Shown here piece by piece: positions 1-12,995 of a stretch of DNA of 12,995 bases. Every line of letters begins with the position of its first letter. Positions within the stretch are counted from its first letter, which is position 1. Below the pieces are notes generated by a model, which worked only from the letters and a program-made list of their open reading frames with translations, did not search any database and was not told the DNA's origin. Made by a program: the position numbers and the translations under genes. This DNA comes from a candidate division WOR-3 bacterium (GTDB taxonomy: Bacteria > Hydrothermota > Tepidihabitantia > Tepidihabitantales > Tepidihabitantaceae): positions 1 through 12,995 of the forward strand of contig CBFGIT010000051.1 in assembly GCA_965648905.1 (NCBI GenBank). The letters run 5' to 3'.

Positions 1-22
1 CCAGCTCACGCAGACCACCGGG
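1..22 (+). repeat. Terminal direct repeat, left copy (identical to 12974-12995)
   Basis: ccagctcacgcagaccaccggg is both the first and the last 22 nt of the window. It also occurs inside the internal target paralogs. Confidence 0.95.
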
Positions 23-333
23 TGATCCGCTTTCTCCGGAGGAAACGTCCTGCCTTTCCAGACCGGCTCACCCCAGTCGGCCTCATCCGGCGGACGGTGC
101 CCGGTCTCCTGCACAAACTTGAGATACTGCGCGTTGGTCACCGGGTGAATCCCGAGATAGAACCCGGGCAGCTCGACCGGAAACGGCTCGTCACCTTCAT
201 TGCTTCCCTTGTCTCCAGCAAGGAACTGGCCGCCGGGGACGAGCACCAGCAGGCTGCCGTCTTTCGGGTTCTCGATGAGGACGTTGTCTCTGCCTTCGGT
301 GAAGGCCAGGTAGCTGCCTGAGTCAGCGGCCAT
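1..333 (-). CDS. FGE-sulfatase/CLec-fold DGR target paralog, 5' part (runs off the left edge)
   Basis: Not in the ORF track. Manual translation from ATG at 333 (GGAG upstream, in-frame TGA at 339-337) gives [111 protein letters not shown], near-identical to the N-terminal half of 5490-6233. It is open to base 1. Confidence 0.92.
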
Positions 334-388
334 CACTCAACTCCACGTTCGCAGCGTCGGGAAGGACCCCTTGCCTCTACCCGGTCGT

Positions 389-532
389 GGGGCCGGGAAA
401 CCTTCGCATTCCCGCTACCAGCCTCCCGGCCCCTCTTCTGTATTCGGCCGCGCACGCGGCCAGGAACCGGCCTGGACTGCGGGCTGCACGCCCGGGTTGT
501 CCGTGGACCGCCCGGTTCCGGCGCCCCGAGTG
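389..532 (-). ncRNA. Structured spacer (Sp-like) segment of the DGR RNA, 3' of TR
   Basis: Non-coding gap directly 3' of TR with several inverted repeats: 389-398/424-433 (10 bp, GGGGCCGGGA), 446-452/455-461 (7 bp), 463-470/512-519 (8 bp, GGAACCGG). The position matches the spacer that primes cDNA synthesis in the Bordetella BPP-1 DGR. The boundaries are inferred. Confidence 0.65.
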
Positions 533-658
533 CTGGCACAGCGAAAACCGTTGTTGTTGTTGCGGTTCGACGGGTCATTGTTGTTGCGATACGCGCACCG
601 GAAGTTGTCCGGATTGTCGTTGTTCCACGACCCGCCGCGCACCACGCGGTTGTCGCCA
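533..658 (-). repeat. DGR template repeat (TR)
   Basis: 126 nt starting just downstream of the avd stop. In target frame it reads [41 protein letters not shown] with 13 AAY, 4 GAC and 1 TAT codons. It aligns to three VRs with mismatches at its adenines. Confidence 0.97.
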
Positions 659-669
659 TCGGCCGGGCC

Positions 670-1029
670 CTATTCATCATCATCTCGCATTTCTCTTATG
701 CTTCTCTGCCAGCCGCCGATCATGCGGCCGACATCATCCACAATCCTGGCCACGTACTCATACTGCCGGACGCTGATAAGACGTTCCTCCATGCACAGCC
801 GCACCTGGAACCGCAACCGCTCCAGCAGAAGGTTAGCCTGCCGCAACCGGGGCATACGGTCCCGAGAGTACCGCGCCTCGATGAGCTGGTCAAGCACGTC
901 GTAGGTCGTTCCGAGCATACGGTCGCCGAGCACGAACTTAAGGTCGCGCGGCAGTTTGCGCACGCGCTGCGTCATCTCACGGCACAGGTCATACGCCCTG
1001 GTGATCACAATCAGGTCGTCAGTCGCCAT
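670..1029 (-). CDS. avd: DGR accessory variability determinant (Avd, four-helix-bundle family), 119 aa
   Basis: MATDDLIVITRAYDLCREMTQRVRKLPRDLKFVLGDRM...LERLRFQVRLCMEERLISVRQYEYVARIVDDVGRMIGGW has the bAvd-like pattern (P+..+F.LG.R, C-terminal G+MIGGW), is basic, and lies immediately 5' of TR. Start moved from 1098 to ATG 1029 because the upstream part is the non-coding post-VR element. Confidence 0.93.
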   Translation of the reverse strand: MATDDLIVITRAYDLCREMTQRVRKLPRDLKFVLGDRMLGTTYDVLDQLIEARYSRDRMPRLRQANLLLERLRFQVRLCMEERLISVRQYEYVARIVDDVGRMIGGWQRSIREMRDDDE

Positions 1030-1058
1030 AGACTCATCCGGTTTCCTTGGCAAAATCG

Positions 1059-1116
1059 GCCGCTCGCTTCGCTCGCGGCACAAGTGGTAAAGCAGCAAAG
1101 CAGCAAACGGTAATCA
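1059..1116 (-). promoter_or_regulatory. Post-VR cis element, copy 1 (IMH-like tract plus hairpin)
   Basis: TGATTACCGTTTGCTGCTTTGCTGCTTTACCACTTGTG followed by the hairpin GCCGC-GA-GC-GAA-GC-GA-GCGGC (1059-1079). It is present after VRs and absent after TR, as expected for the IMH versus IMH* asymmetry. Confidence 0.75.
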
Positions 1117-1887
1117 TCGGACAGTCCTGGCACAGCGAAAACCGTCGTTGCTGGCGCGGTACGACGGGGCATCGCGGCCGCGATACGCGCACCGGAAGAC
1201 GACCGGACCGTCGTGGAAGTGCCACGACCCGCCGCGCACCACGCGGTTGTCGCCACTTTTCGGCAGTGTCAGGTCCCCTCGCTTGTACCGGTCATAGGCT
1301 TCCCTATCATACCAGTCTTCACACCACTCCCAGACGTTTCCGGCCATCTGGTAGAGTCCCCAAGGACTGCACCCTTCAGGATACTGCCAAACCCCACAGG
1401 TCGTATCACCACCCCTGTTCCCGTAATTCCGGCACCGGCGCCCAGCTTCCCAGTCGTTTCCCCACGGATACTCTCTTCCATCCACGCCCCGCGCGCCTTT
1501 CTCCCATTCCAGCTCGGTCGGCAGGCGCAGACCCGCCCACCTGCAGTACGCAGTCGCATCGCCCCAGCTCACGCAGACCACCGGGTGATCCGCTTTCTCC
1601 GGAGGAAACGTCCTGCCTTTCCACACCGGTGTGCCAAAGTCTGCCCGGTCCGGTGGCCGGTGGCCGGTCTCGTCCACAAACCGCTTGTACTGCGCGTTGG
1701 TCACCGGGTGAATCCCGAGATAGAACCCGGGCAGCTCGACCGGAAACTTCTCTTCCCCGGCCAGGAACTTCCCTGCCGGCACAAGCACCAGCAGGCTGTG
1801 GTCTTTCGGGTTCTGGATGAGCGGCTCGGCGCCGGCTTCATCAAGTACCCAGTCCCAGCATCTAATGGTGACCTGCTCCTCTACCAC
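1114..1887 (-). CDS. DGR target protein 1, stand-alone FGE-sulfatase/CLec-fold domain, 257 aa
   Basis: Motifs [70 protein letters not shown] start overlaps the Hsp70 TAG stop. C-terminal VR. Confidence 0.95.
1127..1255 (-). repeat. Variable repeat VR1
   Basis: 129 nt. Versus TR: 18-19 substitutions (depending on gap placement), all at TR adenines, plus one extra codon in the W-N-N-D-N-P segment (WHFHDGP). Confidence 0.96.
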
Positions 1888-3509
1888 TACAGCCTTACAA
1901 CCGGATGGTCCTTGAGCATGGTCTTGCTGGTCAGGTTGTCAATCACCGTGACCAGCAGGCGGCGGTGTTCGTCGACCCGGAACGAACACAGGAAACGCTT
2001 CTTGTCGCGCTCCAGGTTGACAGGCGGGTCCGCCACAATGAACGTCGGTGATTTCCGGTTCAGACACCGGTACTCGAACTGGGTCTGCACCCGGCTTGTG
2101 CCGCACAGCCTGCCGTCTTCACCGATAATCGGGCCGGTTGCGTCGCGGCGTTTCATCTTCGAGACCTCGTAGATGAACAGCCCGAGCCGGGTCTGACCCT
2201 CGACACTGCCCGGCAGCCAGAGCTGCACCGGCGCTTGCGGGTCAGTCGGGTACTCATCACCACTCTTGAAGAGCACGGTGAAGACGTACCGGTTCTGGCT
2301 GCGGCTGAACCCCTCGATGGCGTAGTCGTGCTGAAGGAACGGCAGCACGACGCCGCGGCAGGCACCGCGCGCCACCGCGTCGAACGGCCGCTCCAGGTCC
2401 ACCCGGGAATCGAACTCACTGGTCAGGTACTGCCTTACGCACGGCATTAGGCTCGTGCCGCCGATCACCATCACGCGGGTTACGTCGGCCCGACGCATGC
2501 CGGCCCTGAGCGTCGCGTTCTCCAGCGCCAGCTCCACGGTCTCGCGCACGCGCCGGGTGAAACCGCGCGCCAGGAGCAAACAGCCGAGACAACCCCGGGT
2601 CGGGTCTTCGTTCCGGCCGGGCTCGCCCCGGCGGCAGGCATCACAGTGGCACGTGTAGGTGGTCTGAAACAGCCGGGAGCGCGCGTCGGCCAGCACCGTC
2701 ATCTGTGCCTCCGACTCTCTGGAAAGCTCAATCTTCACCTGCTCGGCCTGGCGCAGGATGACTGCGTCGAGCTCCCGACGCTCGGCCCCTTCCAGCCCGT
2801 GCCTTGAGCAGAAGTCGTCGGCCAGCCACTGGTCGATGTCCATCCCACCGAGGTCGGCTCCGGCTTTGCCCAGTTGCACGGCTTTGGGGTTACCCGGGTC
2901 GGTTCGGTCGAAGCGGACCGCAGATACGTCAAGGGTGCCGCAGCCGAAGTCAAAGACGATGAACCGGTCGTCGGCCCGCGCGCCGTCCTGGTACCCGAAG
3001 ACCGAGGCGGTCGGTTCATCCAGCACCCTCAGCCGTCTGATACCCAGCGACTCGGCGATGCGGCGCAGCCAGTCCTCGAAGTGCTCGAACGCCTCGACCG
3101 GCACGGTGAACGTGAACTCGTCGTCCCGGAACGAGACCAGGTTCCCGGCATAGCCGAGAAGCAGTTTGAGGAAGTCCTCGCCGGCCTGGGCCGGGCTTTT
3201 GTGGCCCTGCGGGGTCGGCCGGCGCTGGGTGTGCTCTTGAGCGATGCCGCGCTTCATCCAGCGAATCGTGTGCCGGTGCTCGGCCAGCCCGCGGGAAAGC
3301 ACCTGGTCGCCAATCAGGGTCTCTTTCTCCGAGTAGTGGATGAGCGACGGCGCCACATGCACCACCTGCTCCGGATGGTTCGGCCCGAGCCGGTACCGGA
3401 ACTCGGTCGTGATGCCCGGCATCGCCATCGTCTCGACCGCGCCGTTCGCTTCGTTCAACCGGGCCATCACGGTATTGCCGGTGCCGAAGTCTACCGCGAC
3501 CTTGCCCAT
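1887..3509 (-). CDS. Atypical Hsp70/DnaK-family protein, 540 aa
   Basis: Hsp70 nucleotide-binding motifs [64 protein letters not shown]. Short divergent C-terminal region with no evident helical lid. RBS AAGGAGGAG upstream. Confidence 0.92.
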
Positions 3510-3510
3510 C

Positions 3511-4059
3511 CTACTCCTCCTTTGCGCTCACCATCGCCTTCTGGAGCACCTTCTCGCCCAGACGGTATCCGGGCAGGCGCACGGTCACCGGCGTGCCGTC
3601 GTGTACCGTGCCGCCGCTCATCCGTTGGTGAAACCGGACGTCGAACCTGCCTGTTTCGCCGACTCGGCCGACCGGCTCCAGCCCGGCGCGGGCCAGTTCC
3701 TTTTCCAGGCTGCGAACCAGCCCGGCCATGTCTCGGGCCTGGACGTCTTTGCCGGCCTCGGCGAGCGTGGCCAGCGCATCGAGATTCGACAGCGGCCCGC
3801 ACAGACGCCGGAACAGCTTCTCCATCTCCGACTGCCCGGCCTGGCCGAATGCGCGGTCCCGCTCGGCGCGCAGCGCCTCGTACTCCCGGCGCAACCGTTC
3901 GATCTGCTCGTCACGCTCGCGCAGGTCCATCTCCAGCGTGGCGACTCTAGCCTGTGCCTCGGCGACCCGTACGTCGTCCGGGCCGCCTGGCGCAACCGCG
4001 CGGCTGCAGAATGCCTGCCACAACCTCGTCCAGTAACCTGGCTTGCTCCTGCTCGTCAT
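3511..4059 (-). CDS. GrpE-like nucleotide exchange factor, 182 aa
   Basis: N-terminal coiled coil followed by GrpE-like C-terminus GLEPVGRVGETGRFDVRFHQ...TVRLPGYRLGEKVLQKAMVS. Directly upstream of the Hsp70 gene, with GAGGAGG RBS. Confidence 0.85.
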   Translation of the reverse strand: MTSRSKPGYWTRLWQAFCSRAVAPGGPDDVRVAEAQARVATLEMDLRERDEQIERLRREYEALRAERDRAFGQAGQSEMEKLFRRLCGPLSNLDALATLAEAGKDVQARDMAGLVRSLEKELARAGLEPVGRVGETGRFDVRFHQRMSGGTVHDGTPVTVRLPGYRLGEKVLQKAMVSAKEE

Positions 4060-4068
4060 GGTACCTCC

Positions 4069-5343
4069 TCAGTGCTCGCGGTCCGCAAACACTGGCTCTG
4101 CCGGCATGTACTCATCCGGCGTGACAACAACCGGCTCGGGCGGGGCCGGTGCTGTGGTCCGATACGCCAGAATTGTCCGCAGCACCTTGCGCGCCGCGCC
4201 CAGACGTCCGGCAAAGGCTTCGGCCGGGGCCGCGTTCAGCGATTCAAGGTCGTTTGGGGTCGCCTTAGCCGGCCAGAACTCAAGCACCCCCGCGGCCTTG
4301 CACAACTCCTTGACCCAGCAGTTGTCATCCTCGACCTTGTCCTTGAGCAGAGCTGCTGCCCCAAGCCCGGCAGCGTGACCGGCCAGGCGCACGAGCCAGT
4401 GCGGACTTGAGTTCACCGCTGCGGCAGCGGGTGACCCGGGCTGGACCTTTGTCGCCAATGCCGAGGCCAGCCTGACACCCTCAGGCGGGTCAGCGGACTT
4501 GAGCTGCTCGGCAAGCTCAGAGTCGCTCATCCCGGCATACTTCGGGTCTTGGCCCTCGGCCAGCCAGCGCTCGAACAGGCTGCTCGTGGCGTCCGGCTTC
4601 TTCGGTGCGGCCAGGTCTGGCCCGAGCGTGTCGGCCAGCACCTGCTTGAGCAGACTGCGCAGTTCCGGGACGTCCGGCTCCCAGCCCGCGTTCTGCAGCT
4701 TCTCCAGCATCGGCAGCGAGTAGCGGAGTGGTATCTGAAGGCAGGCATCAAGCACCCGGCCCCACTCCTTGTGCCGGACAAACGACTCCAGCGCAAACCC
4801 GATTTCCCGCTCGTTGCACTCGACCAGCGGCTTGGGCCCGACCTTGCCGCCGGTCTGGCCGGTCCCGATGAACCCGACGCAGCGCTGGTCGCCACTGCGT
4901 ACCACTTCCATTACGTGCTCTTTCACGGTCGCATCGGCCCGATCGTACTCCATCCGGAGCGCCTGGAAGTCATAGTCCTCCTTGAAGTACTCGTCCAACT
5001 GACGGGTGACAAACAGGAACAGGCAGCGGCGCTCGTGGTCCTGCGGCCGCAGCTTACTGCTCACTGCTATCCGTGCGGCCGCGCCGGTCGGGTCGCCAAT
5101 CGCGACGTCGCAGAGCGCGTCAACCGCGGGCTGGGCCGCAAGCGAACTCAGCGCATCCTCGGCCGCGAGCGCGACTGCGGGGTCAGGGTTCGCAAGCGCT
5201 GCGACCAGAATCGGCACTGCTTCGGGTGAGTCCCGGTTCTCGGCCAGCCGGTGTACTGCCCGGCGCCGCCGCATCCGGCCGATGAGCGGAAACGTCGCGT
5301 CCAGAGCGCGCCGCCACTTCTCAAACTGCTTCGTTGAAGCCAT
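4069..5343 (-). CDS. HEAT/PBS-lyase-like repeat protein, about 424 aa
   Basis: AVHRLAENRDSPEAVPILVAALANPDPAVALAAEDALSSLAAQPAVDALCDVA is HEAT-like and the rest looks largely helical. ATG 5343 chosen because AAGGAG lies 6 nt upstream of it but abuts ATG 5349. Confidence 0.72.
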   Translation of the reverse strand: MASTKQFEKWRRALDATFPLIGRMRRRRAVHRLAENRDSPEAVPILVAALANPDPAVALAAEDALSSLAAQPAVDALCDVAIGDPTGAAARIAVSSKLRPQDHERRCLFLFVTRQLDEYFKEDYDFQALRMEYDRADATVKEHVMEVVRSGDQRCVGFIGTGQTGGKVGPKPLVECNEREIGFALESFVRHKEWGRVLDACLQIPLRYSLPMLEKLQNAGWEPDVPELRSLLKQVLADTLGPDLAAPKKPDATSSLFERWLAEGQDPKYAGMSDSELAEQLKSADPPEGVRLASALATKVQPGSPAAAAVNSSPHWLVRLAGHAAGLGAAALLKDKVEDDNCWVKELCKAAGVLEFWPAKATPNDLESLNAAPAEAFAGRLGAARKVLRTILAYRTTAPAPPEPVVVTPDEYMPAEPVFADREH

Positions 5344-5434
5344 TGTCATCTCCTTTCACAATCTGCACAATTCTCCAAGCCACTGCCTGGCCGATGCAAC
5401 ACAACATGTGATGCGCTTCAAGAAAAACCGCGCG

Positions 5435-5492
5435 GCCGCTCGCTTCGCTCGCGGCACAAGTGGTAAAGCAGCAAAGCAGCAAATGGTAATCA
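5435..5492 (-). promoter_or_regulatory. Post-VR cis element, copy 2 (IMH-like tract plus hairpin)
   Basis: Same as 1059-1116 except one base in the tract. Hairpin at 5435-5455. Confidence 0.75.
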
Positions 5493-6233
5493 TCGGACAG
5501 TCCTGGCACAGCGAAAACCGTAGTAGTAGTAGTAGCGGAACGACGGGGAAATGAAGTAGCGATACGCGCACCGGAAGGAGCCCGGATAGTCGTAGTTCCA
5601 CGACCCGCCGCGCACCACGCGGTTGTCGCCACTTTTCGGCAGTGTCAGGTCCCCTCGCTTGTACCGGTCATAGGCTTCCCTCTCATACCAGTCTTCACAC
5701 CACTCCCAGACGTTACCTGCCATCTGGTAGAGTCCCCAAGGACTGCACCCTTCAGGATAGGCCCAGACAGAGCACGTGGTCTCGCTGCCCCTGTTACCCC
5801 AATTCCGGCACCGGCGCCCATCTTCCCAGTCGTTTCCCCACGGATACTCTCTCCCATCCACGCCCCGCGCGCCTTTCTCCCATTCCAGCTCGGTCGGCAG
5901 GCGCAGACCCGCCCACCTGCAGTACGCAGTCGCATCGTCCCAGCTCACGCAGACCACCGGGTGATCCGCTTTCTCCGGAGGAAACGTCCTGCCTTTCCAG
6001 ACCGGCTCACCCCAGTGGGCCTTATCCGGCGGACGGTGCCCGGTCTCCTGCACAAACTTGAGATACTGCGCGTTGGTCACCGGGTGAATCCCGAGATAGA
6101 ACCCGGGCAGCTCGACCGGAAACGGCCCATCGCCTTCATCGCCCCCCTTGCCCCCGGCCAGGAACTTCCCTGCCGGCACAAGCACCAGCAGGCTGCGGTC
6201 TTTCGGATTCTCGATGAGAGTAGAAGGACCCAT
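5490..6233 (-). CDS. DGR target protein 2, stand-alone FGE-sulfatase/CLec-fold domain, 247 aa
   Basis: Same FGE-sulfatase motifs as target 1, with a near-identical core. ATG overlaps the TGA of the kinase-AAA gene (TGATG). C-terminal VR. Confidence 0.95.
5503..5631 (-). repeat. Variable repeat VR2
   Basis: 129 nt. Versus TR: 16 substitutions at adenines, 1 non-adenine change (GAC to TCC), and one extra codon (5 TAC versus 4 AAC). Confidence 0.96.
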
Positions 6234-8569
6234 CAGCTCACGCTCGCCTGCCGGGCATTGACCGCGGCCCAGCGGGTGATTTCGGCAATCTCGCGCGCCC
6301 GGGAACGCGAAAGCGGATAAGTACGCCCGGCCGCGGCAACGATGTCCGCGGTCTGTAGCTCACGCCCTTGGTCAAAGGCGTAGAACAGCCCGTCGTGGAT
6401 GCAGTGCTCGATTTCCGCGCCCGAGAAGCCGTCGGTTGCCTTGACCACCTCGGTCAGGTTGAACTTCGCCGGGTCCCGGTGCCGTTTGGCAAGGTGAATC
6501 CGGAGGATGGCCTCACGTTCAGACGAGTCGGGCAACCCGACGAAGAATATCTCGTCGAACCGGCCCTTGCGCAGCAGCTCAGGCGGCAGGCGGCGGATTT
6601 CGTTGGCGGTGGCGACAACAAATACCGGGCTGGTCTTGTCCTGCAGCCAGGAGAGGAATGACCCGAACACCCGTGCGGCCACACGCCCGGACACCGGCCC
6701 GCTCACACCGGCAAAGCCCTTTTCGATTTCATCTACCCAGAGGATGCACGGGCTGACCGCCTCGGCCGTCGCAATCGCCATGCGCAGATTGGCCTCGGAA
6801 GCGCCGACAATCGAGCCAAAGATGCGGCCCACGTCAAGGCGCAGCAACGGCACGCCCCAGGTGCCGGCAAGGGCGCGGGCCGCCAGACTTTTGCCGCAGC
6901 CCGGGACCCCAACGAGAAGCAAGCCTTTGGGTACGGGCAGGCCGGCATAGCGGGCGGTTCGGGCAAAGGCCGGGTAGCGCTCCGCGAACCAGTGACGCAG
7001 GTTCTCGAGCCCGCCGATGTCGGCCATGGTTTCGCTGTTGTGGTAGTACTCAAGGATGCCGCTTTTGCGGATAATCTGGCTCTTGGCCTCAGCTACCAGT
7101 CGCGGCGTTGTGGAGGAAATGCCGTTCTCGCGGATGGCCACGGCACGCAGAGCACGGCCGGCCTCGGCCATGGTCAGCCCGCTGAGCGCACGGAGAAGGA
7201 CCTGCCGGTCATCGGCGCTGAGCCGGGACTCCTGCCCGCCGGTCTTGAGGTCGGCCAGTATGCCGTTGAGCAGCGGCTCGAACTCCTCCTGGTCCGGCAA
7301 ACCGTAGGCAAACAGCGTCACCTCTTTGTCAAGCTCGTCCGGCAAAGCATACCGGGGCGAGAGGAAGATGACGCTCTTGCGGGTCGTTCGGACCGCACGG
7401 GCGGTGTCACGGATGAGCCGCACCGTCACCGGCGAGAAGTGGCGGTGGATGTCGAGGAAGACGTAGATGGCGTCGTCCGGGCTTTCGATGGCGTGGACCA
7501 GGGCGGCAGTCGGGTCTTCGATCGTCCGTTCGCTCGTCAGGTTGCCCTGGGAGTCGCGCAGGCCCCGGGAGGCACTCCAGACCAGCACATGTCGCTCGCG
7601 CCGGCGCTCCTCGCCGAGGCGACCGGCGATTCGCCGGACCGCGTCAAGCACGCGCTGCTCCTCCCAACTGACAACATATACCAGGGGCAGACTGGCGCGG
7701 ATAGTCGTCTCGAGGCGGCCCTCGTCGCCGCGAACCGATCGGGTCCGGCGGGCGATGAGCTCCAGTTCGTTGGCCAGTTCCTCGGCAGTGAGGTAGCGGC
7801 GTTCCGGGTCCTTGTCCAGCATCCGGCGAAGTACGCGGATAAGGCGGACGTCGACTTCTGCCTCCAGCAGTGCCGATTCGTCCAGCGGCGAGTACATGAT
7901 GGCATGCATCAACTCGCCGGTCTCGCCGTTGAACGGCCGTTGACCGGTGAGCATCTCGTAGAACGTGACCCCAAGAGACCACAGGTCGGCATTGGTCCCG
8001 GCTGCGCCCTGGAACTGCTCGGGTGCCATGTAGGCCACGGTGCCGACCCGGGTGCTCGCAACCGAACTGGTGTGGGCAAGCACCCGCGCGATGCCGAAGT
8101 CAAGCAACTTGGGCGTGCCGGCACCGGCGAGGAAGATGTTGGCCGGCTTGACGTCACGGTGGAGGATACGCAGGCTGTGGGCAAAGGCGAGCGCCTCAGC
8201 CACCAGGCCGGCGTAACGCAGCGCCTCCTGCTGAGGCAGACGATGGTCGCGCCGCAACCGCGCGCTGAGGCTCTCTCCTTCCAGATACTCCATAACCAGG
8301 AAAGCGATGCCCTCGTGCCGCTCAATGCCGTAGACCCGCAGGATGTTGGGATGGATGAGCCGGCTGCTCACGGCAAGTTCCTTCTCCAGCTCGGCGATGC
8401 CCTCCGGGTCCTGGTGGTGCGGAAACCCGAGGGCGAAGACCTCGCCGTCGTCCCGCCGCGCCCGGTAGACGCTCTTGAATGCGCCGCTGCCGAGAAAAGC
8501 CTCCAGGACATAGGGGCCAAAGCGCTGGCCGAGCTTGTACGGGCCACCGGGCCGATTCATGCCGTTCAT
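6233..8569 (-). CDS. Hanks-type Ser/Thr kinase fused to a Ycf46-like AAA+ ATPase, about 778 aa
   Basis: Kinase motifs [42 protein letters not shown]+ motifs Walker A GVPGCGKS, Walker [26 protein letters not shown]. Start placed at ATG 8569 (GAGGT upstream, just after the previous stop) instead of 8644. Confidence 0.92.
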
Positions 8570-8570
8570 G

Positions 8571-10220
8571 CTATACCTCGAACACCCGCCGGCGCTTCTG
8601 GGGCACGGGCGGAGCTTCGGACTCGGGGAAGGCCGCTGCGTCAATCGGCTCGGCAGGCTTGACGGCGCTGGAGGCCAGACGCCACTTCTTCTCCGCGTCC
8701 TGACGCAGGCGCGCTATCCGGTCCGGCATCGAAGCCGAAAGCGGCACGGTATCGCGGATTGACTGTTCGAGGTGCCGGTCTTCGAGCCTGCTTGTCTCTC
8801 CCTCGGCAAAAGCAGCAAAGAGCGCGGATACGACTGCCTGTTCGATTTCGGCGCCGGAGAAGCCTTCGGTGGCGGCCACGTGCCGGGCAAGGTCGAAGTC
8901 GCGCGGGTCCCGGTGGTGCTTGGCCAGGTGGATGGCGAGAATCATGGCCCGCTCCTGCGGGTTGGGCAGGTCGATGAAGAAGATTTCGTCGAACCGGCCC
9001 TTGCGCAGCAGTTCGGGCGGCAGACCTTCGATATCGTTGGCCGTTGCCACGGTGAAGACCGGCTTGCGGTTCTCCTCCATCCACGTGAGCAGGCTGCCGA
9101 AAACCCGCTGGGAAACGCCGGAGTCACCGAAGTCGCCGCGCGAGCCGGCCAGGCCTTTTTCGACTTCATCAATCCAGAGGATACAGGGTGCCACCGCCTC
9201 AGCCAGCTTCAGCGCCCGGCGCATGTTCTCCTCGGACGAGCCGACCAGCCCGGAAAAGACCTTGCCCAGATCGAACTTCAAGAGCGGCATCTTCCATTCC
9301 GACGAGACCGCTTTGGCCGAAAGGCTCTTGCCGCAGCCCGGGACCCCGACCAGGAGCAACCCGCGCGGGTTGGGCAGACCGAACTCCCGGGCTGCCTCGG
9401 AAAATGCCTTCTGGCGCTGGCGCAGCCACTTCTTCAGTTCATCCAGACCGCCAATGCTGCCGAACCGTTCGGGCGTGGAGTAGAACTCGAGCATCCCGGA
9501 CTTGCGGATTATCTGCTCCTTTTCGGCCAGAAGCAGCGGGATGTCGTCCGGGTCAATCCGGCTCCGGGAGACGAGCACCTTGGCCAGAGCGTTCTCGGCC
9601 TCGGCTTCGGTCAGGCCCAAGAGTGCCTTGACCACTGCCTCGCGGCCGCCGTCAGCCAGTCTGACTTCGACCCGCGGGTTGTCGCGCACCTGGTCCACGG
9701 TGTCGTCGAGCACCCGGGCCAGCTCTTCCTCGTCCGGCATTTCTAGGTCGAGCACCGTCAGGTCCTTTTCCAGTTCGGGCGGTATTTTCAGCACCGGCGA
9801 AAGCAGAACCACGGTCTTGCGGGACGCGGCAAAAGGTTCGACCACGTCGCGCAACTGGCGCACGACCAGGGCCGAGACCGGGCTGCGTTCATCCATGAAC
9901 GTGTGGAAGTCGAGCAGGATGAACACGCCCGGGTCCCTTGCCTCGAGCAACAGGGGCAGGATGCGCTTCGGGTCGGCCGCCCGGGCATCGACCACCTTGC
10001 CGTCAAGGGTGCAGAGTCCGCGTGAGACCGACCAGACCAGGGGCCGGCGCTTTGCCAGCTCGCCGCCGGCGACCGCGCGGCCGATCAGCTTGATGGCACG
10101 CTCTTCCTCCGCGGTCACGACGTAGAGTATCGGATAGCCGGCCCGAACGTGAACCTGAAACTGCTGCTGAAACTCGGTGGTCTTTGAGGGCAGCACTGCG
10201 GTCTCTTTGGCCGCGCTCAT
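8571..10220 (-). CDS. Ycf46-like AAA+ ATPase, 549 aa
   Basis: N-terminal YPILYVVTAEEERA and degenerate ATPase-like domain, then [77 protein letters not shown] overlap with the DUF2997 gene. Confidence 0.92.
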   Translation of the reverse strand: MSAAKETAVLPSKTTEFQQQFQVHVRAGYPILYVVTAEEERAIKLIGRAVAGGELAKRRPLVWSVSRGLCTLDGKVVDARAADPKRILPLLLEARDPGVFILLDFHTFMDERSPVSALVVRQLRDVVEPFAASRKTVVLLSPVLKIPPELEKDLTVLDLEMPDEEELARVLDDTVDQVRDNPRVEVRLADGGREAVVKALLGLTEAEAENALAKVLVSRSRIDPDDIPLLLAEKEQIIRKSGMLEFYSTPERFGSIGGLDELKKWLRQRQKAFSEAAREFGLPNPRGLLLVGVPGCGKSLSAKAVSSEWKMPLLKFDLGKVFSGLVGSSEENMRRALKLAEAVAPCILWIDEVEKGLAGSRGDFGDSGVSQRVFGSLLTWMEENRKPVFTVATANDIEGLPPELLRKGRFDEIFFIDLPNPQERAMILAIHLAKHHRDPRDFDLARHVAATEGFSGAEIEQAVVSALFAAFAEGETSRLEDRHLEQSIRDTVPLSASMPDRIARLRQDAEKKWRLASSAVKPAEPIDAAAFPESEAPPVPQKRRRVFEV

Positions 10221-10414
10221 CGCTCAACCTCATGTTCTTGTTCCTGCTCGGTTTCGGTTTCGTGGAACTCGGGCTTGAGCACCCGCTCGCCGATGGGCGT
10301 CCCGAGCCGCTTCTCCAGTTCGGCGGTGAAGGCCAGGCACTCTTCGCCGACCGCGCCCAGGACCTCGACCTTCTGGGTCCCGTCCCTGTGCAGGGTGATT
10401 CTTATCTTTTTCAT
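10217..10414 (-). CDS. DUF2997-family small protein, 65 aa
   Basis: MKKIRITLHRDGTQKVEVLGAVGEECLAFTAELEKRLG...KPEF fits the I.I..DG.V..EV.G..G..C...T..LE..LG pattern. RBS AAGGAGG. Usual neighbour of DUF1257 and Ycf46-like AAA genes. Confidence 0.85.
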   Translation of the reverse strand: MKKIRITLHRDGTQKVEVLGAVGEECLAFTAELEKRLGTPIGERVLKPEFHETETEQEQEHEVER

Positions 10415-10429
10415 ATCATCCTCCTTTGC

Positions 10430-10846
10430 CTAGCCGCGTTCGGACAGCACGATGACCACGTCGCCGTTGGCAAGCCTCTCCTCTTCCTCGACGACGAGAT
10501 TCTGCTCGCGGGCCTGCGCGTGGATGAGATTGTAGCTGTACTGCTGGCTGACCTGCTCGATGAAGCTCTGCTGCCGAATCGGCTGGCCGTTGATTCGGAG
10601 CGGGCTGTGGGAGGCCACGCCAAAGTCCCAGTCGGCCACCGCCTCATAGACTTCGCCGCTCCGGCGCAGGCCGATGTCGTATTCGCATTGCGTATCGACG
10701 ACGATTTCGGCCCGCTCCTGGTTGCCGGCATAGCCGCGCACCACGAGGTTTTCACCTTCCCGGAACTGATAGTGCAGGTCGCGCAGGGCCTGCACCAGGT
10801 GCTCTCGCTCACGCATCTGGGTTCGGATTCTCAGAAAATGTGACAT
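10430..10846 (-). CDS. DUF1257 / Ycf35-like protein, 138 aa
   Basis: MSHF..I.T......L..AL.DL, VRGY.G, YDIG, YE.VAD, Q.Y pattern typical of Ycf35/DUF1257. RBS GAGGAGG. Confidence 0.87.
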   Translation of the reverse strand: MSHFLRIRTQMREREHLVQALRDLHYQFREGENLVVRGYAGNQERAEIVVDTQCEYDIGLRRSGEVYEAVADWDFGVASHSPLRINGQPIRQQSFIEQVSQQYSYNLIHAQAREQNLVVEEEERLANGDVVIVLSERG

Positions 10847-10858
10847 TTCGGTCCTCCT

Positions 10859-12418
10859 CTATCGTACGGTTTCTATCACGCGCCGGCCGGTGCCGGCTTC
10901 GGGTTTCTCTTCGCTTGAGGCCGAGAACGCGCGGCCTTCGGTTTTCCACTTGCGCAGCTCCTCGATGACCGCGACGTGCGACCGGCTGATCGGCACGGTT
11001 TCTTCGAGTTTGGCCAGCAGGTCCTGCTGGGTTATCTCCCGTTCACCGTCAATCAGGGCGGCGATTTCAGCCTCTCGTACCGCCCGCTCGATCTCCCGGC
11101 CGACAAAGCCTGTGGCCTTCTCCACCAACTCGTCCAGCCTGAACTGACGGTCGGGGAAGAGCACATGGGCCCGCTTGAGGTGAATTCGGAATATCTCGGC
11201 CCGCTCCCGCTTGTTGGGCAGGTCCACGAAGAACAACCGGTCGAACCGGCCGATGAACTCGGGCGGCAGCCCCTCGAGAAGGTTCGCGGTTCCGACCACG
11301 TAGACCGGGGTCCGGTGTTCCTGTGCCCAAGTCAGAAAGGTCCCGAGCACGCGCGTCGGCGCGCCGGCGTTTATCGAGCGCGGGTCGGCGCCGGCGAACG
11401 CCTTCTCCACCTCGTCAATCCAAAGCACACACGGGCTGACCGTGTCGGCCAGACTCAGGGCCAGCCGCAGGTGCTTTTCCGACTCGCCGAGCAGGCTGCC
11501 GAACACCGCGCCCAGGTCAAGGCGCAGGAGCGGCCACTTCCACAGCCCGGCAATCATCTTCGCCGAAAGGCTCTTGCCCGTGCCCGGAATCCCGGCTAAG
11601 AGCACGCCGCGTGGCAACCAGGAGAGTTTGTCGCGCTTGTCCGCAGCGAAGCACAGCTCCCGGCCCTTGACGTAGCTCTTGAACAGGTCCAGCCCGCCCA
11701 CGTCTGCTTCGCCGGCGGTCGCGGGCCAGAACTCAAGCGCCCCGCTTTCGCGGATGGCGCGCTGCTTTGCCCGGGTCACGAGGTCGATGCCGCGTTCGTC
11801 AAACACGCGGGTCTGGGCCCAGACCCGTGAGAACGCGAGCCGGGCCTGAGTTGTCGTCAATCCCAGAGCCGACGAGACCAGCTTGTCCCGAACTTCGCGC
11901 CGGGGCAGGCGTGACTTGTCCAGCTTCGACGTGAAGTCGGCGAAGAGTGCGTCGAGTTCGGCCTGATTCGGCAGCGGTACGTCCACGACTACCACCTCGT
12001 CCCGGAGTTCGAACGGCAGAGCATGGTCGCGGTCGAGCAGAGGAGTGAGAAAGACCAGGAACTGGCGCTGGGCGCGCAGGCGCGGAACCATGTTGCGCAG
12101 TTTCCTGATGATGGTGGACCGCACCTTCGACGTCCAACTGAGATGGAAGTCCTTGAGCACCACAAGGTGGTCGGGCGGCATGGCCGCGGCCAGATGCGGC
12201 AGTATCGTATCCGAAGTGCAGTCCTTTGACGGCAGGGGTTTCTCACCTTGCCGGAGCGGCTTAAAACCATCGGCAATGTCCCAACTGGTCACACCGAGCT
12301 TCGCGGTTTCCGCAAGTTCGGTCAGTATCCTCAGCGCCCGTTCTTCCTCATAGGTGACCAGGTGCACGAGCGGCACCTGGGCTTCAATCAAAGAAGCCAG
12401 CTCAGCTTTGAAGTCCAT
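10859..12418 (-). CDS. Divergent Ycf46-like AAA+ ATPase, 519 aa
   Basis: PLVHLVTYEEERA, VGGLDLFK, Walker A GIPGTGKS, Walker B VLWIDEVEK, shortened second region of homology LPPEFIGRFD. Start at ATG 12418 with AAGGAG RBS, not 12511. Confidence 0.9.
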   Translation of the reverse strand: MDFKAELASLIEAQVPLVHLVTYEEERALRILTELAETAKLGVTSWDIADGFKPLRQGEKPLPSKDCTSDTILPHLAAAMPPDHLVVLKDFHLSWTSKVRSTIIRKLRNMVPRLRAQRQFLVFLTPLLDRDHALPFELRDEVVVVDVPLPNQAELDALFADFTSKLDKSRLPRREVRDKLVSSALGLTTTQARLAFSRVWAQTRVFDERGIDLVTRAKQRAIRESGALEFWPATAGEADVGGLDLFKSYVKGRELCFAADKRDKLSWLPRGVLLAGIPGTGKSLSAKMIAGLWKWPLLRLDLGAVFGSLLGESEKHLRLALSLADTVSPCVLWIDEVEKAFAGADPRSINAGAPTRVLGTFLTWAQEHRTPVYVVGTANLLEGLPPEFIGRFDRLFFVDLPNKRERAEIFRIHLKRAHVLFPDRQFRLDELVEKATGFVGREIERAVREAEIAALIDGEREITQQDLLAKLEETVPISRSHVAVIEELRKWKTEGRAFSASSEEKPEAGTGRRVIETVR

Positions 12419-12440
12419 CTCTTTCTCCTTTTCGAATTGA

Positions 12441-12493
12441 TGTGGCAGAGGAATCCATTCCTCGATTCTTGCGGATAGGAGTCCGCTCCCACA
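12441..12493. repeat. REP-like inverted doublet (two GTGG-footed hairpins)
   Basis: Plus strand TGTGGCA-GAGGAAT-CC-ATTCCTC, and minus strand TGTGGGA-GCGGA-CTCCTA-TCCGC. Two hairpins face each other, each preceded by GTGG, like GTRG-family REP doublets. Confidence 0.55.
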
Positions 12494-12529
12494 CAAGTGG
12501 TAAAGCAGCAAAGCAGCAAATGGTAATCA
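12492..12529 (-). promoter_or_regulatory. Post-VR cis element, copy 3 (IMH-like tract)
   Basis: TGATTACCATTTGCTGCTTTGCTGCTTTACCACTTGTG is identical to copy 2, but the downstream hairpin is different. Confidence 0.72.
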
Positions 12530-12995
12530 TCGGACAGTCCTGGCACAGCGAAAACCGTAGTAGTAGGTGCGGTACGACGGGGCAGTGCTGTAGCGACACG
12601 CGCACCGGAAGTGGCCCGGAGAGTCGTTGAGCCACGACCCGCCGCGCACCACGCGGTAGTCGCCACTTTTCGGCAGTGTCAGGTCCCCTCGCTTGTACCG
12701 GTCATAGGCTTCCCTATCATACCAGTCTTCACACCACTCCCGGACGTTTCCGGCCATCTGGTAGAGTCCCCAAGGACTGCACCCTTCAGGATAGGCCCAG
12801 ACAGAGCACGTGGTCTCGCTGCCCCTGTTACCCCAATTCCGGCACCGGCGCCCATCTTCCCAGTCGTTTCCCCACGGATACTCTCTTCCATCCACGCCCC
12901 GCGCGCCTTTCTCCCATTCCAGCTCGGTCGGCAGGCGCAGACCCGCCCACCTGCAGTACGCAGTCGCATCGCCCCAGCTCACGCAGACCACCGGG
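12527..12995 (-). CDS. DGR target protein 3, FGE-sulfatase/CLec-fold, 3' part (5' end beyond the right edge or continued from 1-333)
   Basis: [33 protein letters not shown]...GNVREWCED...RVVRGGSW...GFRCARTVR, open to the edge of the window. Confidence 0.94.
12540..12665 (-). repeat. Variable repeat VR3
   Basis: 126 nt, colinear with TR. 17 substitutions, all at TR adenines. Confidence 0.97.
12974..12995 (+). repeat. Terminal direct repeat, right copy (identical to 1-22)
   Basis: Exact 22-nt match to the start of the window. Confidence 0.95.

Follow-up and report, generated by a model that had tools for sequence, protein, structure and literature searches.

Contig CBFGIT010000051.1 of a candidate division WOR-3 bacterium (assembly GCA_965648905.1) carries parts of a diversity-generating retroelement (DGR) whose lectin-fold target genes stand among the genes of an AAA+/DUF1257/DUF2997/kinase/Hsp70-GrpE operon. 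The entire contig (G000:C51; 12,995 nt) was analyzed and is referred to here as the window; the genome to which it was assigned, G000, comprises 3.0 Mb in 60 contigs and is estimated to be 99.6% complete. Domains were called with Pfam profiles on the open reading frames (ORFs) of the window (14 products), and NCBIfam was used as a second library. Every long ORF with a domain lies on the minus strand, and the order of the Pfam matches bears out the co-directional run of genes named in the original prediction, which had been made from the letters of the sequence without database searches. The features are listed below, with FGE standing for formylglycine-generating enzyme, CLec for C-type lectin, TR for template repeat, and VR for variable region.

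12527..12994, minus strand: T3, a target with the FGE/CLec fold, C-terminal 155 aa (FGE-sulfatase, 143.3 bits, profile positions 92 to 255); the 5′ part is cut by the contig end
10859..12511, minus strand: AAA1, a Ycf46-type classical AAA+ protein (Pfam AAA, 83.1 bits, plus AAA_lid_3)
10430..10846, minus strand: DUF1257 (Ycf35-type), a small protein (PF06868, 79.5 bits; cut-off, 22.2)
10217..10414, minus strand: DUF2997, a small protein (PF11211, 37.9 bits; cut-off, 24.1)
8571..10220, minus strand: AAA2, a second Ycf46-type AAA+ paralogue (Pfam AAA, 108.5 bits)
6233..8644, minus strand: kinase-AAA, a Ser/Thr kinase fused to a third Ycf46-type AAA+ module (Pkinase, 172.9 bits; AAA, 101.4 bits)
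5490..6233, minus strand: T2, a complete, free-standing FGE/CLec target of 247 aa (FGE-sulfatase, 196.7 bits)
4069..5349, minus strand: HEAT-like alpha-solenoid protein (HEAT_2, 27.1 bits, slightly below the cut-off of 27.7)
3511..4059, minus strand: GrpE-like nucleotide-exchange factor (Pfam GrpE, 43.6 bits)
1887..3509, minus strand: lid-less Hsp70 paralogue (Pfam HSP70, 70.6 bits)
1114..1887, minus strand: T1, a free-standing FGE/CLec target (FGE-sulfatase, 190.6 bits)
670..1098, minus strand: Avd, the DGR accessory protein (bAvd, 64.3 bits; NCBIfam DivGenRetAVD, 101.7 bits; cut-off, 80)
533..657, minus strand (read 657 to 533): TR core, 125 nt with 32 A, followed by a G+C-rich noncoding spacer to about 337
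1..336, minus strand: T4, a target, N-terminal 112 aa (FGE-sulfatase, 52.4 bits, profile positions 5 to 98); the 3′ part is cut by the contig end
1127..1254, minus strand: VR1, 128 nt, in T1 (19 A-to-N changes and one 3-nt insertion relative to the TR)
5503..5630, minus strand: VR2, 128 nt, in T2 (17 A-to-N changes, one G-to-T change, and one 3-nt insertion relative to the TR)
12540..12664, minus strand: VR3, 125 nt, in T3 (18 A-to-N changes relative to the TR and zero other core substitutions)

In NCBIfam, Avd scored above its cut-off, and the other window products had sub-threshold family matches only. Gaps between the genes are small, and the two stop/start overlaps that had been read from the sequence are there: the GTG start of T1 overlaps the Hsp70 stop (TAGTG), and the start of T2 overlaps the kinase-AAA stop (TGATG). 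A consensus scan for promoters and terminators returned 14 terminator-like sites, compared to 9.2 ± 2.8 in shuffled sequence; zero of these fell within the minus-strand intergenic gaps, which indicates only that there is no obvious internal terminator. The highest 19-residue Kyte-Doolittle mean over all window proteins was 1.54; therefore, no membrane helix or signal-peptide core is evident in any product, as had been claimed for the targets. Some ORFs extend beyond the likely start of their protein. The N termini of the AAA1 and Avd ORFs (LLLYHLC) are an in-frame reading of a flank shared 3′ of the VRs and are thus spurious. The true Avd start is probably Met24, near position 1029, and that of kinase-AAA probably lies near position 8569. 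AAA1 orthologues from 14 related loci are 56 to 70% identical to it, with alignments that begin at residue 23 to 34 in 12 of the 14, and its start is probably Met32, near position 12418.

The first 22 nt of the contig are the same as its last 22 nt, and this 22-mer is present at four places in the window. The exact matches run further than that: T1 agrees with the final 140 nt without a difference, and T2 agrees in the same way with the initial 77 nt. Both ends therefore lie in exact repeats common to the target paralogues, and the assembly broke within the repeat. The 22-nt end overlap prompted us to consider a circular contig; since the 22-mer occurs four times and the ends repeat T1 and T2, the overlap just marks the assembly break and is evidence neither for nor against a circle. 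The contig is an incompletely assembled copy of the system. The prediction had listed the outermost two targets as separate genes; both are FGE genes, but they are fragments at the contig ends (T3 and T4) and could be one gene or two. T4 DNA is 92% identical to the DNA encoding the T2 N terminus. Another contig of the genome opens inside a further FGE-target N terminus (C11:1-142; 76% identical to T2 residues 3 to 56, over 54 residues), followed by an intergenic stretch and then pyrimidine-synthesis genes, and is a candidate neighbor of the window contig.

The TR lies directly 3′ of the Avd stop codon and, read in the frame of the targets, is a string rich in Asn codons. Summed over the three VR cores, 54 differences from the TR are A-to-N changes (19, 17, and 18 for VR1, VR2, and VR3) and one is a different substitution (the G-to-T change in T2), which upholds the view that the targets are diversified by a DGR. 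The paralogues T2 and T3 are almost the same gene; they differ at 16 of 128 positions within the VR and at 6 of 344 outside it. The VR ends 13 nt before the stop codon in each of the three assembled targets, and about 62 nt 3′ of the VR (after GCCAG) are common to T1, T2, and T3. Three features by which a DGR is recognized are present in the window: adenine-specific TR/VR differences, an Avd, and a VR at the C terminus of a CLec/FGE target with a shared 3′ element. A fourth, a DGR-clade reverse transcriptase at the locus, is absent. A hairpin 3′ of the VR was no better than shuffled sequence for VR1 (z of −0.15) and VR2 (z of +1.08) and gave a z of −2.5 for VR3. The targets are bare FGE domains of 247 to 257 aa in which the scaffold is conserved and the tip varies; their sequence matches are formylglycine-generating enzymes and, more distantly, Treponema TvpA (T2; E value of 1.4e-12). 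VR1 and VR2 each contain an extra codon (3 nt) relative to the TR, at different places, which is unexplained by adenine mutagenesis alone. We conclude that several free-standing lectin-fold proteins, predicted to be cytoplasmic, are, or were until recently, subject to the TR/VR system.

The divergent Hsp70 served as the marker in searches of one genome per species plus metagenome contigs. Its close relatives (57 to 60% identity) were found in three metagenome-assembled genomes (MAGs), labeled unclassified bacterium, Acidobacteria, and Polyangiaceae, and relatives on metagenome contigs contributed 52 loci. The window proteins, together with the reverse transcriptase (RT), radical S-adenosylmethionine (SAM) protein, and PP2C phosphatase of relatives, were mapped by tblastn onto the resulting 55 loci. 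Hsp70 identity was at least 50% in 53 of them, and the other two (L085 and L087) were dropped. A cyanobacterial Hsp70-like match of 30% identity (L011) proved to have an unrelated neighborhood and was set aside. At least five locus pairs (L041/L042, L048/L049, L070/L071, L073/L074, and L079/L080) look like the same sequence twice, so the counts given here overstate independence.

A neighborhood search of this kind had been proposed as the check on the original prediction, which would have lost its basis had orthologous operons been without CLec targets. They are not: FGE genes are present in 24 of the 27 loci of at least 6 kb, at one to eight per locus (the exceptions being L079/L080 and the fragmentary L082), RT in 10 of the 27, and Avd in 8. 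Among the 17 loci of at least 10 kb, AAA1 and DUF1257 were each found in 12, DUF2997 and AAA2 in 9, kinase-AAA in 8, and the radical SAM gene in 7. The usual order is [FGE, Avd, TR, FGE, RT] > HEAT > GrpE > Hsp70 > (FGE) > AAA1 > DUF1257 > (FGE) > DUF2997 > AAA2 > (FGE) > kinase-AAA > (FGE) > small radical SAM protein, of which the gene order in the window is a circular permutation. RT is embedded between FGE and HEAT in L008 (FGE > RT > HEAT), L044, L048, and L061, and a short form, HEAT > GrpE > Hsp70 > AAA1 > DUF1257 > FGE > radical SAM, occurs in L009, L061, and L066. The radical SAM protein of the relatives is NrdG-like (113.8 bits, against an NrdG equivalog cut-off of 126.1). The L008 operon, the only one in which a PP2C phosphatase was seen, ends with an Stp1-type member of that family (242.5 bits; cut-off, 230). 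In the loci seen, the system is compact, at roughly 12 to 16 kb.

The adenine bias also recurs. TR/VR mismatches were A biased in all four relatives with a TR: TR adenines accounted for 16 of 18 and 18 of 21 mismatches in L044, 19 of 21 in L061 (nearest target), 24 of 26 and 18 of 21 in L057, and 17 of 21 in L066. A TR was not found in the genome of L008, an incomplete MAG in which all four matches to the VR query are VRs, and Avd was not found in G001 or G002, both likewise incomplete MAGs. The gene combination is conserved and is not a chance neighborhood; genetic coupling of the lectin-fold targets to the rest of the machine is strongly supported. L073/L074 contains a minimal module (positions 3539 to 8942) in which an AmmeMemoRadiSam-type radical SAM gene precedes FGE > HEAT > GrpE > Hsp70, without the AAA part and flanked by housekeeping genes (RtcB and DAHP synthase). 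The existence of FGE > HEAT > GrpE > Hsp70 without AAA genes ties the lectin proteins to the Hsp70 half of the system.

In that half, the phosphate-1, phosphate-2, and adenosine motifs of Hsp70 are invariant across 31 sequences. The Hsp70 model (predicted local distance difference test [pLDDT], 84.4) shows a nucleotide-binding domain and then, after residue 395, an all-beta domain without a helical lid; the top matches in a fold search with this model were DnaK, Hsc70, and BiP, at E values of 1e-29 to 1e-23 and covering nearly the whole length. Four cysteines in an insert in the nucleotide-binding domain (C289, C292, C307, and C310; CxxC ... CxxC) are at least 90% conserved in the same 31 sequences and possibly form a zinc-binding knuckle. 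The AlphaFold model of the HEAT-like protein is all helical, an alpha-solenoid (pLDDT, 81.3; predicted template modeling score, 0.46). Its fold search gave no match at an E value of ≤0.001, and the ARM/HEAT matches were weak. Among 1.84 billion cluster representatives, this protein has 206 representative relatives at an E value of ≤1e-30 and is specific to the system; in the ESM-Atlas, the closest cluster comprises 74 members, with Acidobacteriota as the most common source.

Each AAA protein consists of an N-terminal domain of about 250 to 290 residues and one classical-clade AAA domain. All three modules keep Walker A (GxPGxGKS) and Walker B (LWIDE/LWVDE) motifs (GIPGTGKS and VLWIDE in AAA1), and they score with CDC48/FtsH/PAN models in NCBIfam. 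AAA1, AAA2, and kinase-AAA are 56 to 84% identical to their own orthologues and 37 to 44% identical to one another; therefore, the three diverged before the system spread, as expected for fixed, nonredundant subunits. AAA2 orthologues are 68 to 84% identical, and its best solved relatives are p97/Cdc48 D2 modules. Residues 15 to 525 of AAA2 are 42 to 44% identical to three cyanobacterial AAA proteins of about 500 aa, which we take to be Ycf46. DUF1257 is present in a single copy in the genome. The HRD, DFG, and APE motifs of the kinase are invariant in seven of seven orthologues. In the kinase domain (residues ~45 to 300), the beta3 Lys position is occupied by Gly or Ala, and a Lys in the Gly-rich loop (GxGAFKSVY) is invariant, again in seven of seven orthologues; this placement presumably resembles that of WNK kinases. 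Pfam detected no vWA, MoxR (AAA_3/AAA_5), STAND, EAD, GTPase, nuclease, protease, or pore-forming domain in the window.

At an E value of ≤1e-40, the marker Hsp70 was found in 1 of 272 genomes of the phylum of the window, namely, G000 itself, and a genome of the same genus was negative. In the phylum of locus L010, a true orthologue was found in 1 of 401 sampled genomes (that of L010; 1,016 bits). Another 25 Hsp70-like matches in that phylum (132 to 176 bits; E values of 1e-38 to 1e-51) were rejected as distant paralogues, and the surroundings of 18 of these 25 contained none of the other genes of the system. Viral contigs scanned with the Hsp70 alignment yielded no relative, a result that speaks neither for nor against the interpretation given below. 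Among four long upstream flanks, a tyrosine integrase adjoins the first FGE gene in one (L059:3231-4388), and a DDE transposase is found in another (L055:4717-5892). Because the distribution is patchy and an integrase or transposase occurs in two of four flanks, the system is probably a rare, patchy accessory system that spreads horizontally.

From the observed gene content, adenine-specific TR/VR pattern, recurrence, and conserved order, we propose a chain that runs from variable lectin receptors through an Hsp70/HEAT module and a hetero-oligomeric AAA+ ring to a kinase output, with recognition of non-self as its purpose; we assign the whole chain a probability of roughly 45%. A DGR, made up of Avd, the TR, and an RT that is missing from this assembly but encoded in the operons of relatives, would hypermutate the C-terminal ligand-binding face of several small, soluble FGE/CLec proteins, whose genes vary in number and in position among those of a fixed machine. 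The latter would comprise the HEAT-like solenoid, the GrpE-like protein, the lid-less Hsp70, three AAA+ proteins (one fused to the kinase), DUF1257, and DUF2997, joined by the NrdG-like radical SAM protein in relatives. The lectin-fold proteins would then be interchangeable receptors, with the VR face binding a cytoplasmic macromolecule and the constant scaffold docking onto the Hsp70/HEAT module. Hsp70 and the hetero-oligomeric AAA+ ring, with DUF1257 and DUF2997 as cofactors, would remodel or extract either the ligand so captured or its complex with the receptor, and the ring-fused kinase would turn engagement into a phosphorylation signal or effector output, which in one locus (L008) might be reversed by the PP2C phosphatase. 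We infer complex formation, the direction of information flow, and a defense role. The most probable purpose would be to detect non-self inside the cell, for instance proteins of phages or mobile elements. A stronger version, in which a repertoire of DGR-diversified intracellular lectin-fold "antibodies" hands foreign proteins to a private Hsp70 and a hetero-hexameric Ycf46-type AAA+ ring that would extract or unfold them, with kinase output, amounting to proteostasis-based anticipatory immunity, goes further and is in our view unlikely.

Several observations weigh against the proposed chain. No match to RVT_1, the RT domain, was found among the window products with Pfam, and the radical SAM gene is likewise absent; in keeping with the latter, the radical SAM protein of L010 had no tblastn match in the genome at an E value of ≤1e-5. 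Contig C3 carries the only DGR-type RT of the genome, which shares 45% identity with the RT of the system type in L008, and the flank of the C3 TR is unlike that of the window. How Hsp70 would be driven is a problem, as none of the 14 window products matched DnaJ or a J domain (Pfam; E value of ≤0.01). Pore-loop 1 of all three AAA modules carries Leu, Val, or Ile; this loop usually has an aromatic residue in unfoldases, and its nonaromatic character weakens the idea of threading. No recognizable death or nuclease effector is encoded, and matches in PADLOC-DB 2.0 were at the domain level only: the AAA modules are IetA-like (up to 102 bits), the kinase domain is PD-T4-6/mad6-like (228 bits), and the other eight products had zero matches. 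The L079/L080 variant consists of an 824-aa HEAT protein, GrpE, and Hsp70, without FGE, AAA, or DUF1257. Finally, the G+C content of the contig (0.643) is the highest among the 60 contigs (mean, 0.624), and the binning of a 13-kb contig is uncertain. In L079/L080, Hsp70 is followed by two ORFs of 994 and 852 aa without a Pfam match and then by MutS.

The absence of RT may reflect an assembly gap, because the contig ends in a repeat. By analogy with L044, where the order FGE > Avd > TR > FGE > RT > HEAT mirrors T1 > Avd > TR > T4 > contig end in the window, a system-type RT likely lies in the gap beyond T4. The genome contains two RVT_1 matches. One (C31:9570-10259; 128 bits) lies within a 607-aa open frame and is perhaps a group II intron protein. 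The other is the 356-aa RT on C3, part of another complete DGR (G000:C3:80000-95000; L003). Over 97 nt, the C3 TR and the window TR are only 73% alike; the spacers that follow them do not align, and the two Avd proteins are 37% identical. Since RT is absent from the window and the C3 RT is tied to the other DGR, activity of the window copy cannot be asserted. The second DGR has its own Avd, TR, and RT and three FGE targets (a Zn-ribbon-PEGA-FGE protein, a kinase-FGE fusion of 648 aa, and a Zn-ribbon-FGE protein) and no private chaperone; its neighbors are a PASTA Ser/Thr kinase, LEA_2 proteins, an FHA-ABC transporter, and a 23S-IVP protein. On contig C9 (~85919 to 87346), an FGE-sulfatase gene (238.7 bits) adjoins a 62-residue match to the C terminus of the C3 RT and may be a DGR remnant.

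Three other explanations were weighed. In the first, the variable lectin proteins adjust which endogenous or environmental ligands are recognized, the kinase (with PP2C in one locus) relays the signal to cell physiology, and the chaperones are assembly factors. The intact catalytic motifs of the kinase and the Stp1-type PP2C that closes the L008 operon would suit such regulatory sensing, as would the second DGR of the genome, which targets a kinase-FGE fusion and adjoins the PASTA kinase and the FHA-ABC transporter. The very patchy occurrence (a single genome among 272 and a single one among 401) and the integrase and transposase neighbors fit an accessory conflict-type element better, and the system has no DNA-binding or second-messenger output domain. 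We regard regulatory sensing as improbable.

In the second, the private Hsp70/GrpE/HEAT module and AAA+ ring fold, triage, or dispose of hypermutated lectin-fold variants, and the targets act elsewhere. Such buffering would agree with the minimal FGE > HEAT > GrpE > Hsp70 module of L073, with the lack of a recognizable effector, and with an FGE gene number that is free (one to eight) while the machine is constant. Against it, the CLec fold tolerates VR variation, and the DGR on C3 of the same genome serves three FGE targets without a private chaperone. Multi-target DGRs are generally described without one in the available excerpts of PMC5758913, and buffering leaves the kinase fusion, DUF1257/DUF2997, the radical SAM gene, and PP2C unexplained; we consider it quite unlikely. 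The third, that DGR target cassettes were inserted into a functionally unrelated Ycf46/Ycf35/Hsp70 operon by coincidence, is hardly credible: the FGE slots do differ between loci, but FGE genes lie within the operon in 24 of 27 loci of at least 6 kb across MAGs with different lineage labels, the target starts overlap upstream stops, and RT is embedded between FGE and HEAT in four loci.

If the proposed receptor-to-kinase chain holds, it would constitute a further class of hypermutating intracellular receptor system, with a chaperone/AAA+ machine at its core instead of STAND or MoxR-vWA. It would also give Ycf46, Ycf35/DUF1257, and DUF2997 a first, testable role, as partners of a substrate-selecting machine; these proteins are conserved from cyanobacteria to plastids, and to our knowledge their function has gone unexplained for decades. 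Such a chain would further make its free-standing, DGR-variable proteins of about 250 aa, paired with a defined docking machine, an attractive basis for engineering selectable binders. Even without a proven mechanism, the compact, conserved gene set could be transferred to a laboratory host.

The closest published systems are conflict systems of the MoxR-vWA ternary, GTPase-centric, and STAND NTPase types, in which DGR-diversified FGS/CLec domains act as sensors or effectors (Kaur 2020, PMC7159879; Kaur 2021, PMC8195603; Dore 2024, PMC10907252). The analogy to adaptive immune receptors has already been drawn there. Common to those systems and the window are a cellular DGR acting on an FGE/CLec domain, NTPase "thresholding" parts and sometimes kinases, the possibility of several targets per locus, predicted cytoplasmic location, and a patchy distribution. 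The published systems carry their lectin domain as a fusion to a vWA protein (with a MoxR AAA+ protein), a STAND NTPase, or a GTPase, and recognizable effectors or EAD adaptors are present. In contrast, the window targets are free-standing, and Pfam finds no vWA, MoxR, STAND, or EAD beside them. Neither MoxR, vWA, nor paired TRAFAC GTPases, by which the MoxR-vWA and GTPase systems are defined (Kaur 2020), occur in the window, and the targets consist of the FGE domain only, without the C-terminal fusion that marks the STAND-CLec systems (Kaur 2021; Dore 2024). The NTPases of the window are three classical-clade Ycf46-type AAA+ proteins accompanied by DUF1257 and DUF2997, and its core includes a lid-less Hsp70, GrpE, and HEAT, unlike those systems as excerpted.

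In the available excerpts of PMC7159879, Hsp70/GrpE appears only with GAP1-N2 GTPase systems, and two text supplementary files of that paper do not mention DUF1257, DUF2997, Ycf46, or GrpE. DUF1257, DUF2997, and Ycf46 likewise go unmentioned in the portions of PMC7159879, PMC8195603, and PMC10907252 that were available. A full-text search found no literature joining a DGR to this core, although the supplements of PMC10907252 and PMC8195603 could list such neighborhoods. The novelty first supposed thus stands in part: the literature searched did not yield this core with its free-standing, multi-copy sensors, whereas DGR-diversified lectin sensors in NTPase conflict systems are published. The coupling of DGR-variable lectin sensors to NTPase machinery is the known part, and the machinery together with the free-standing multi-copy sensors is the new part.

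Other comparisons concern the separate modules. Multi-target DGRs, nonadjacent targets, and action in trans are documented (Wu 2018, PMC5758913). As in Treponema denticola, where TvpA and its paralogues are diversified (PDB 2y3c; PMC5758913), one TR serves several FGE/CLec targets, including nonadjacent ones; the window targets differ from TvpA-type targets, as there described, in that they lack signal-peptide or lipoprotein features and are embedded in an ATPase/chaperone operon. Cyanobacteria have a DUF2997-ycf35-fed7 cluster (PMC4284462). The Ycf46/Ycf35/DUF2997 module and the window both have DUF1257 and DUF2997, above the Pfam cut-offs, beside a single-module AAA+ protein of about 500 aa; the window differs in its three paralogous ATPases (one kinase fused), its Hsp70/GrpE/HEAT genes, its DGR and lectin-fold targets, and the lack of any link to photosynthesis genes.

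With the DnaK-DnaJ-GrpE and HscC-DjlB/DjlC systems (PMC8215388), the window shares the Hsp70 fold, the nucleotide-binding motifs, and a dedicated GrpE-like factor, and its resemblance to HscC lies in being a specialized Hsp70 with private partners. It differs from both in having no helical lid, no J-protein, and an added Cys4 insert, and the HEAT-like and FGE proteins take the place in which systems of this type would have a targeting J-protein. A comparison with the ClpB/Hsp104-Hsp70 disaggregase, meant only as one of working principle, rests on the joint presence of genes for an Hsp70, its exchange factor, and ring AAA+ ATPases, an arrangement suggestive of substrate transfer from the Hsp70 to an AAA+ ring. 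Unlike ClpB/Hsp104, the window AAA+ proteins are single-module, classical-clade ATPases with nonaromatic pore loops and no ClpB middle domain, and their specificity would come from DGR-variable adaptors.

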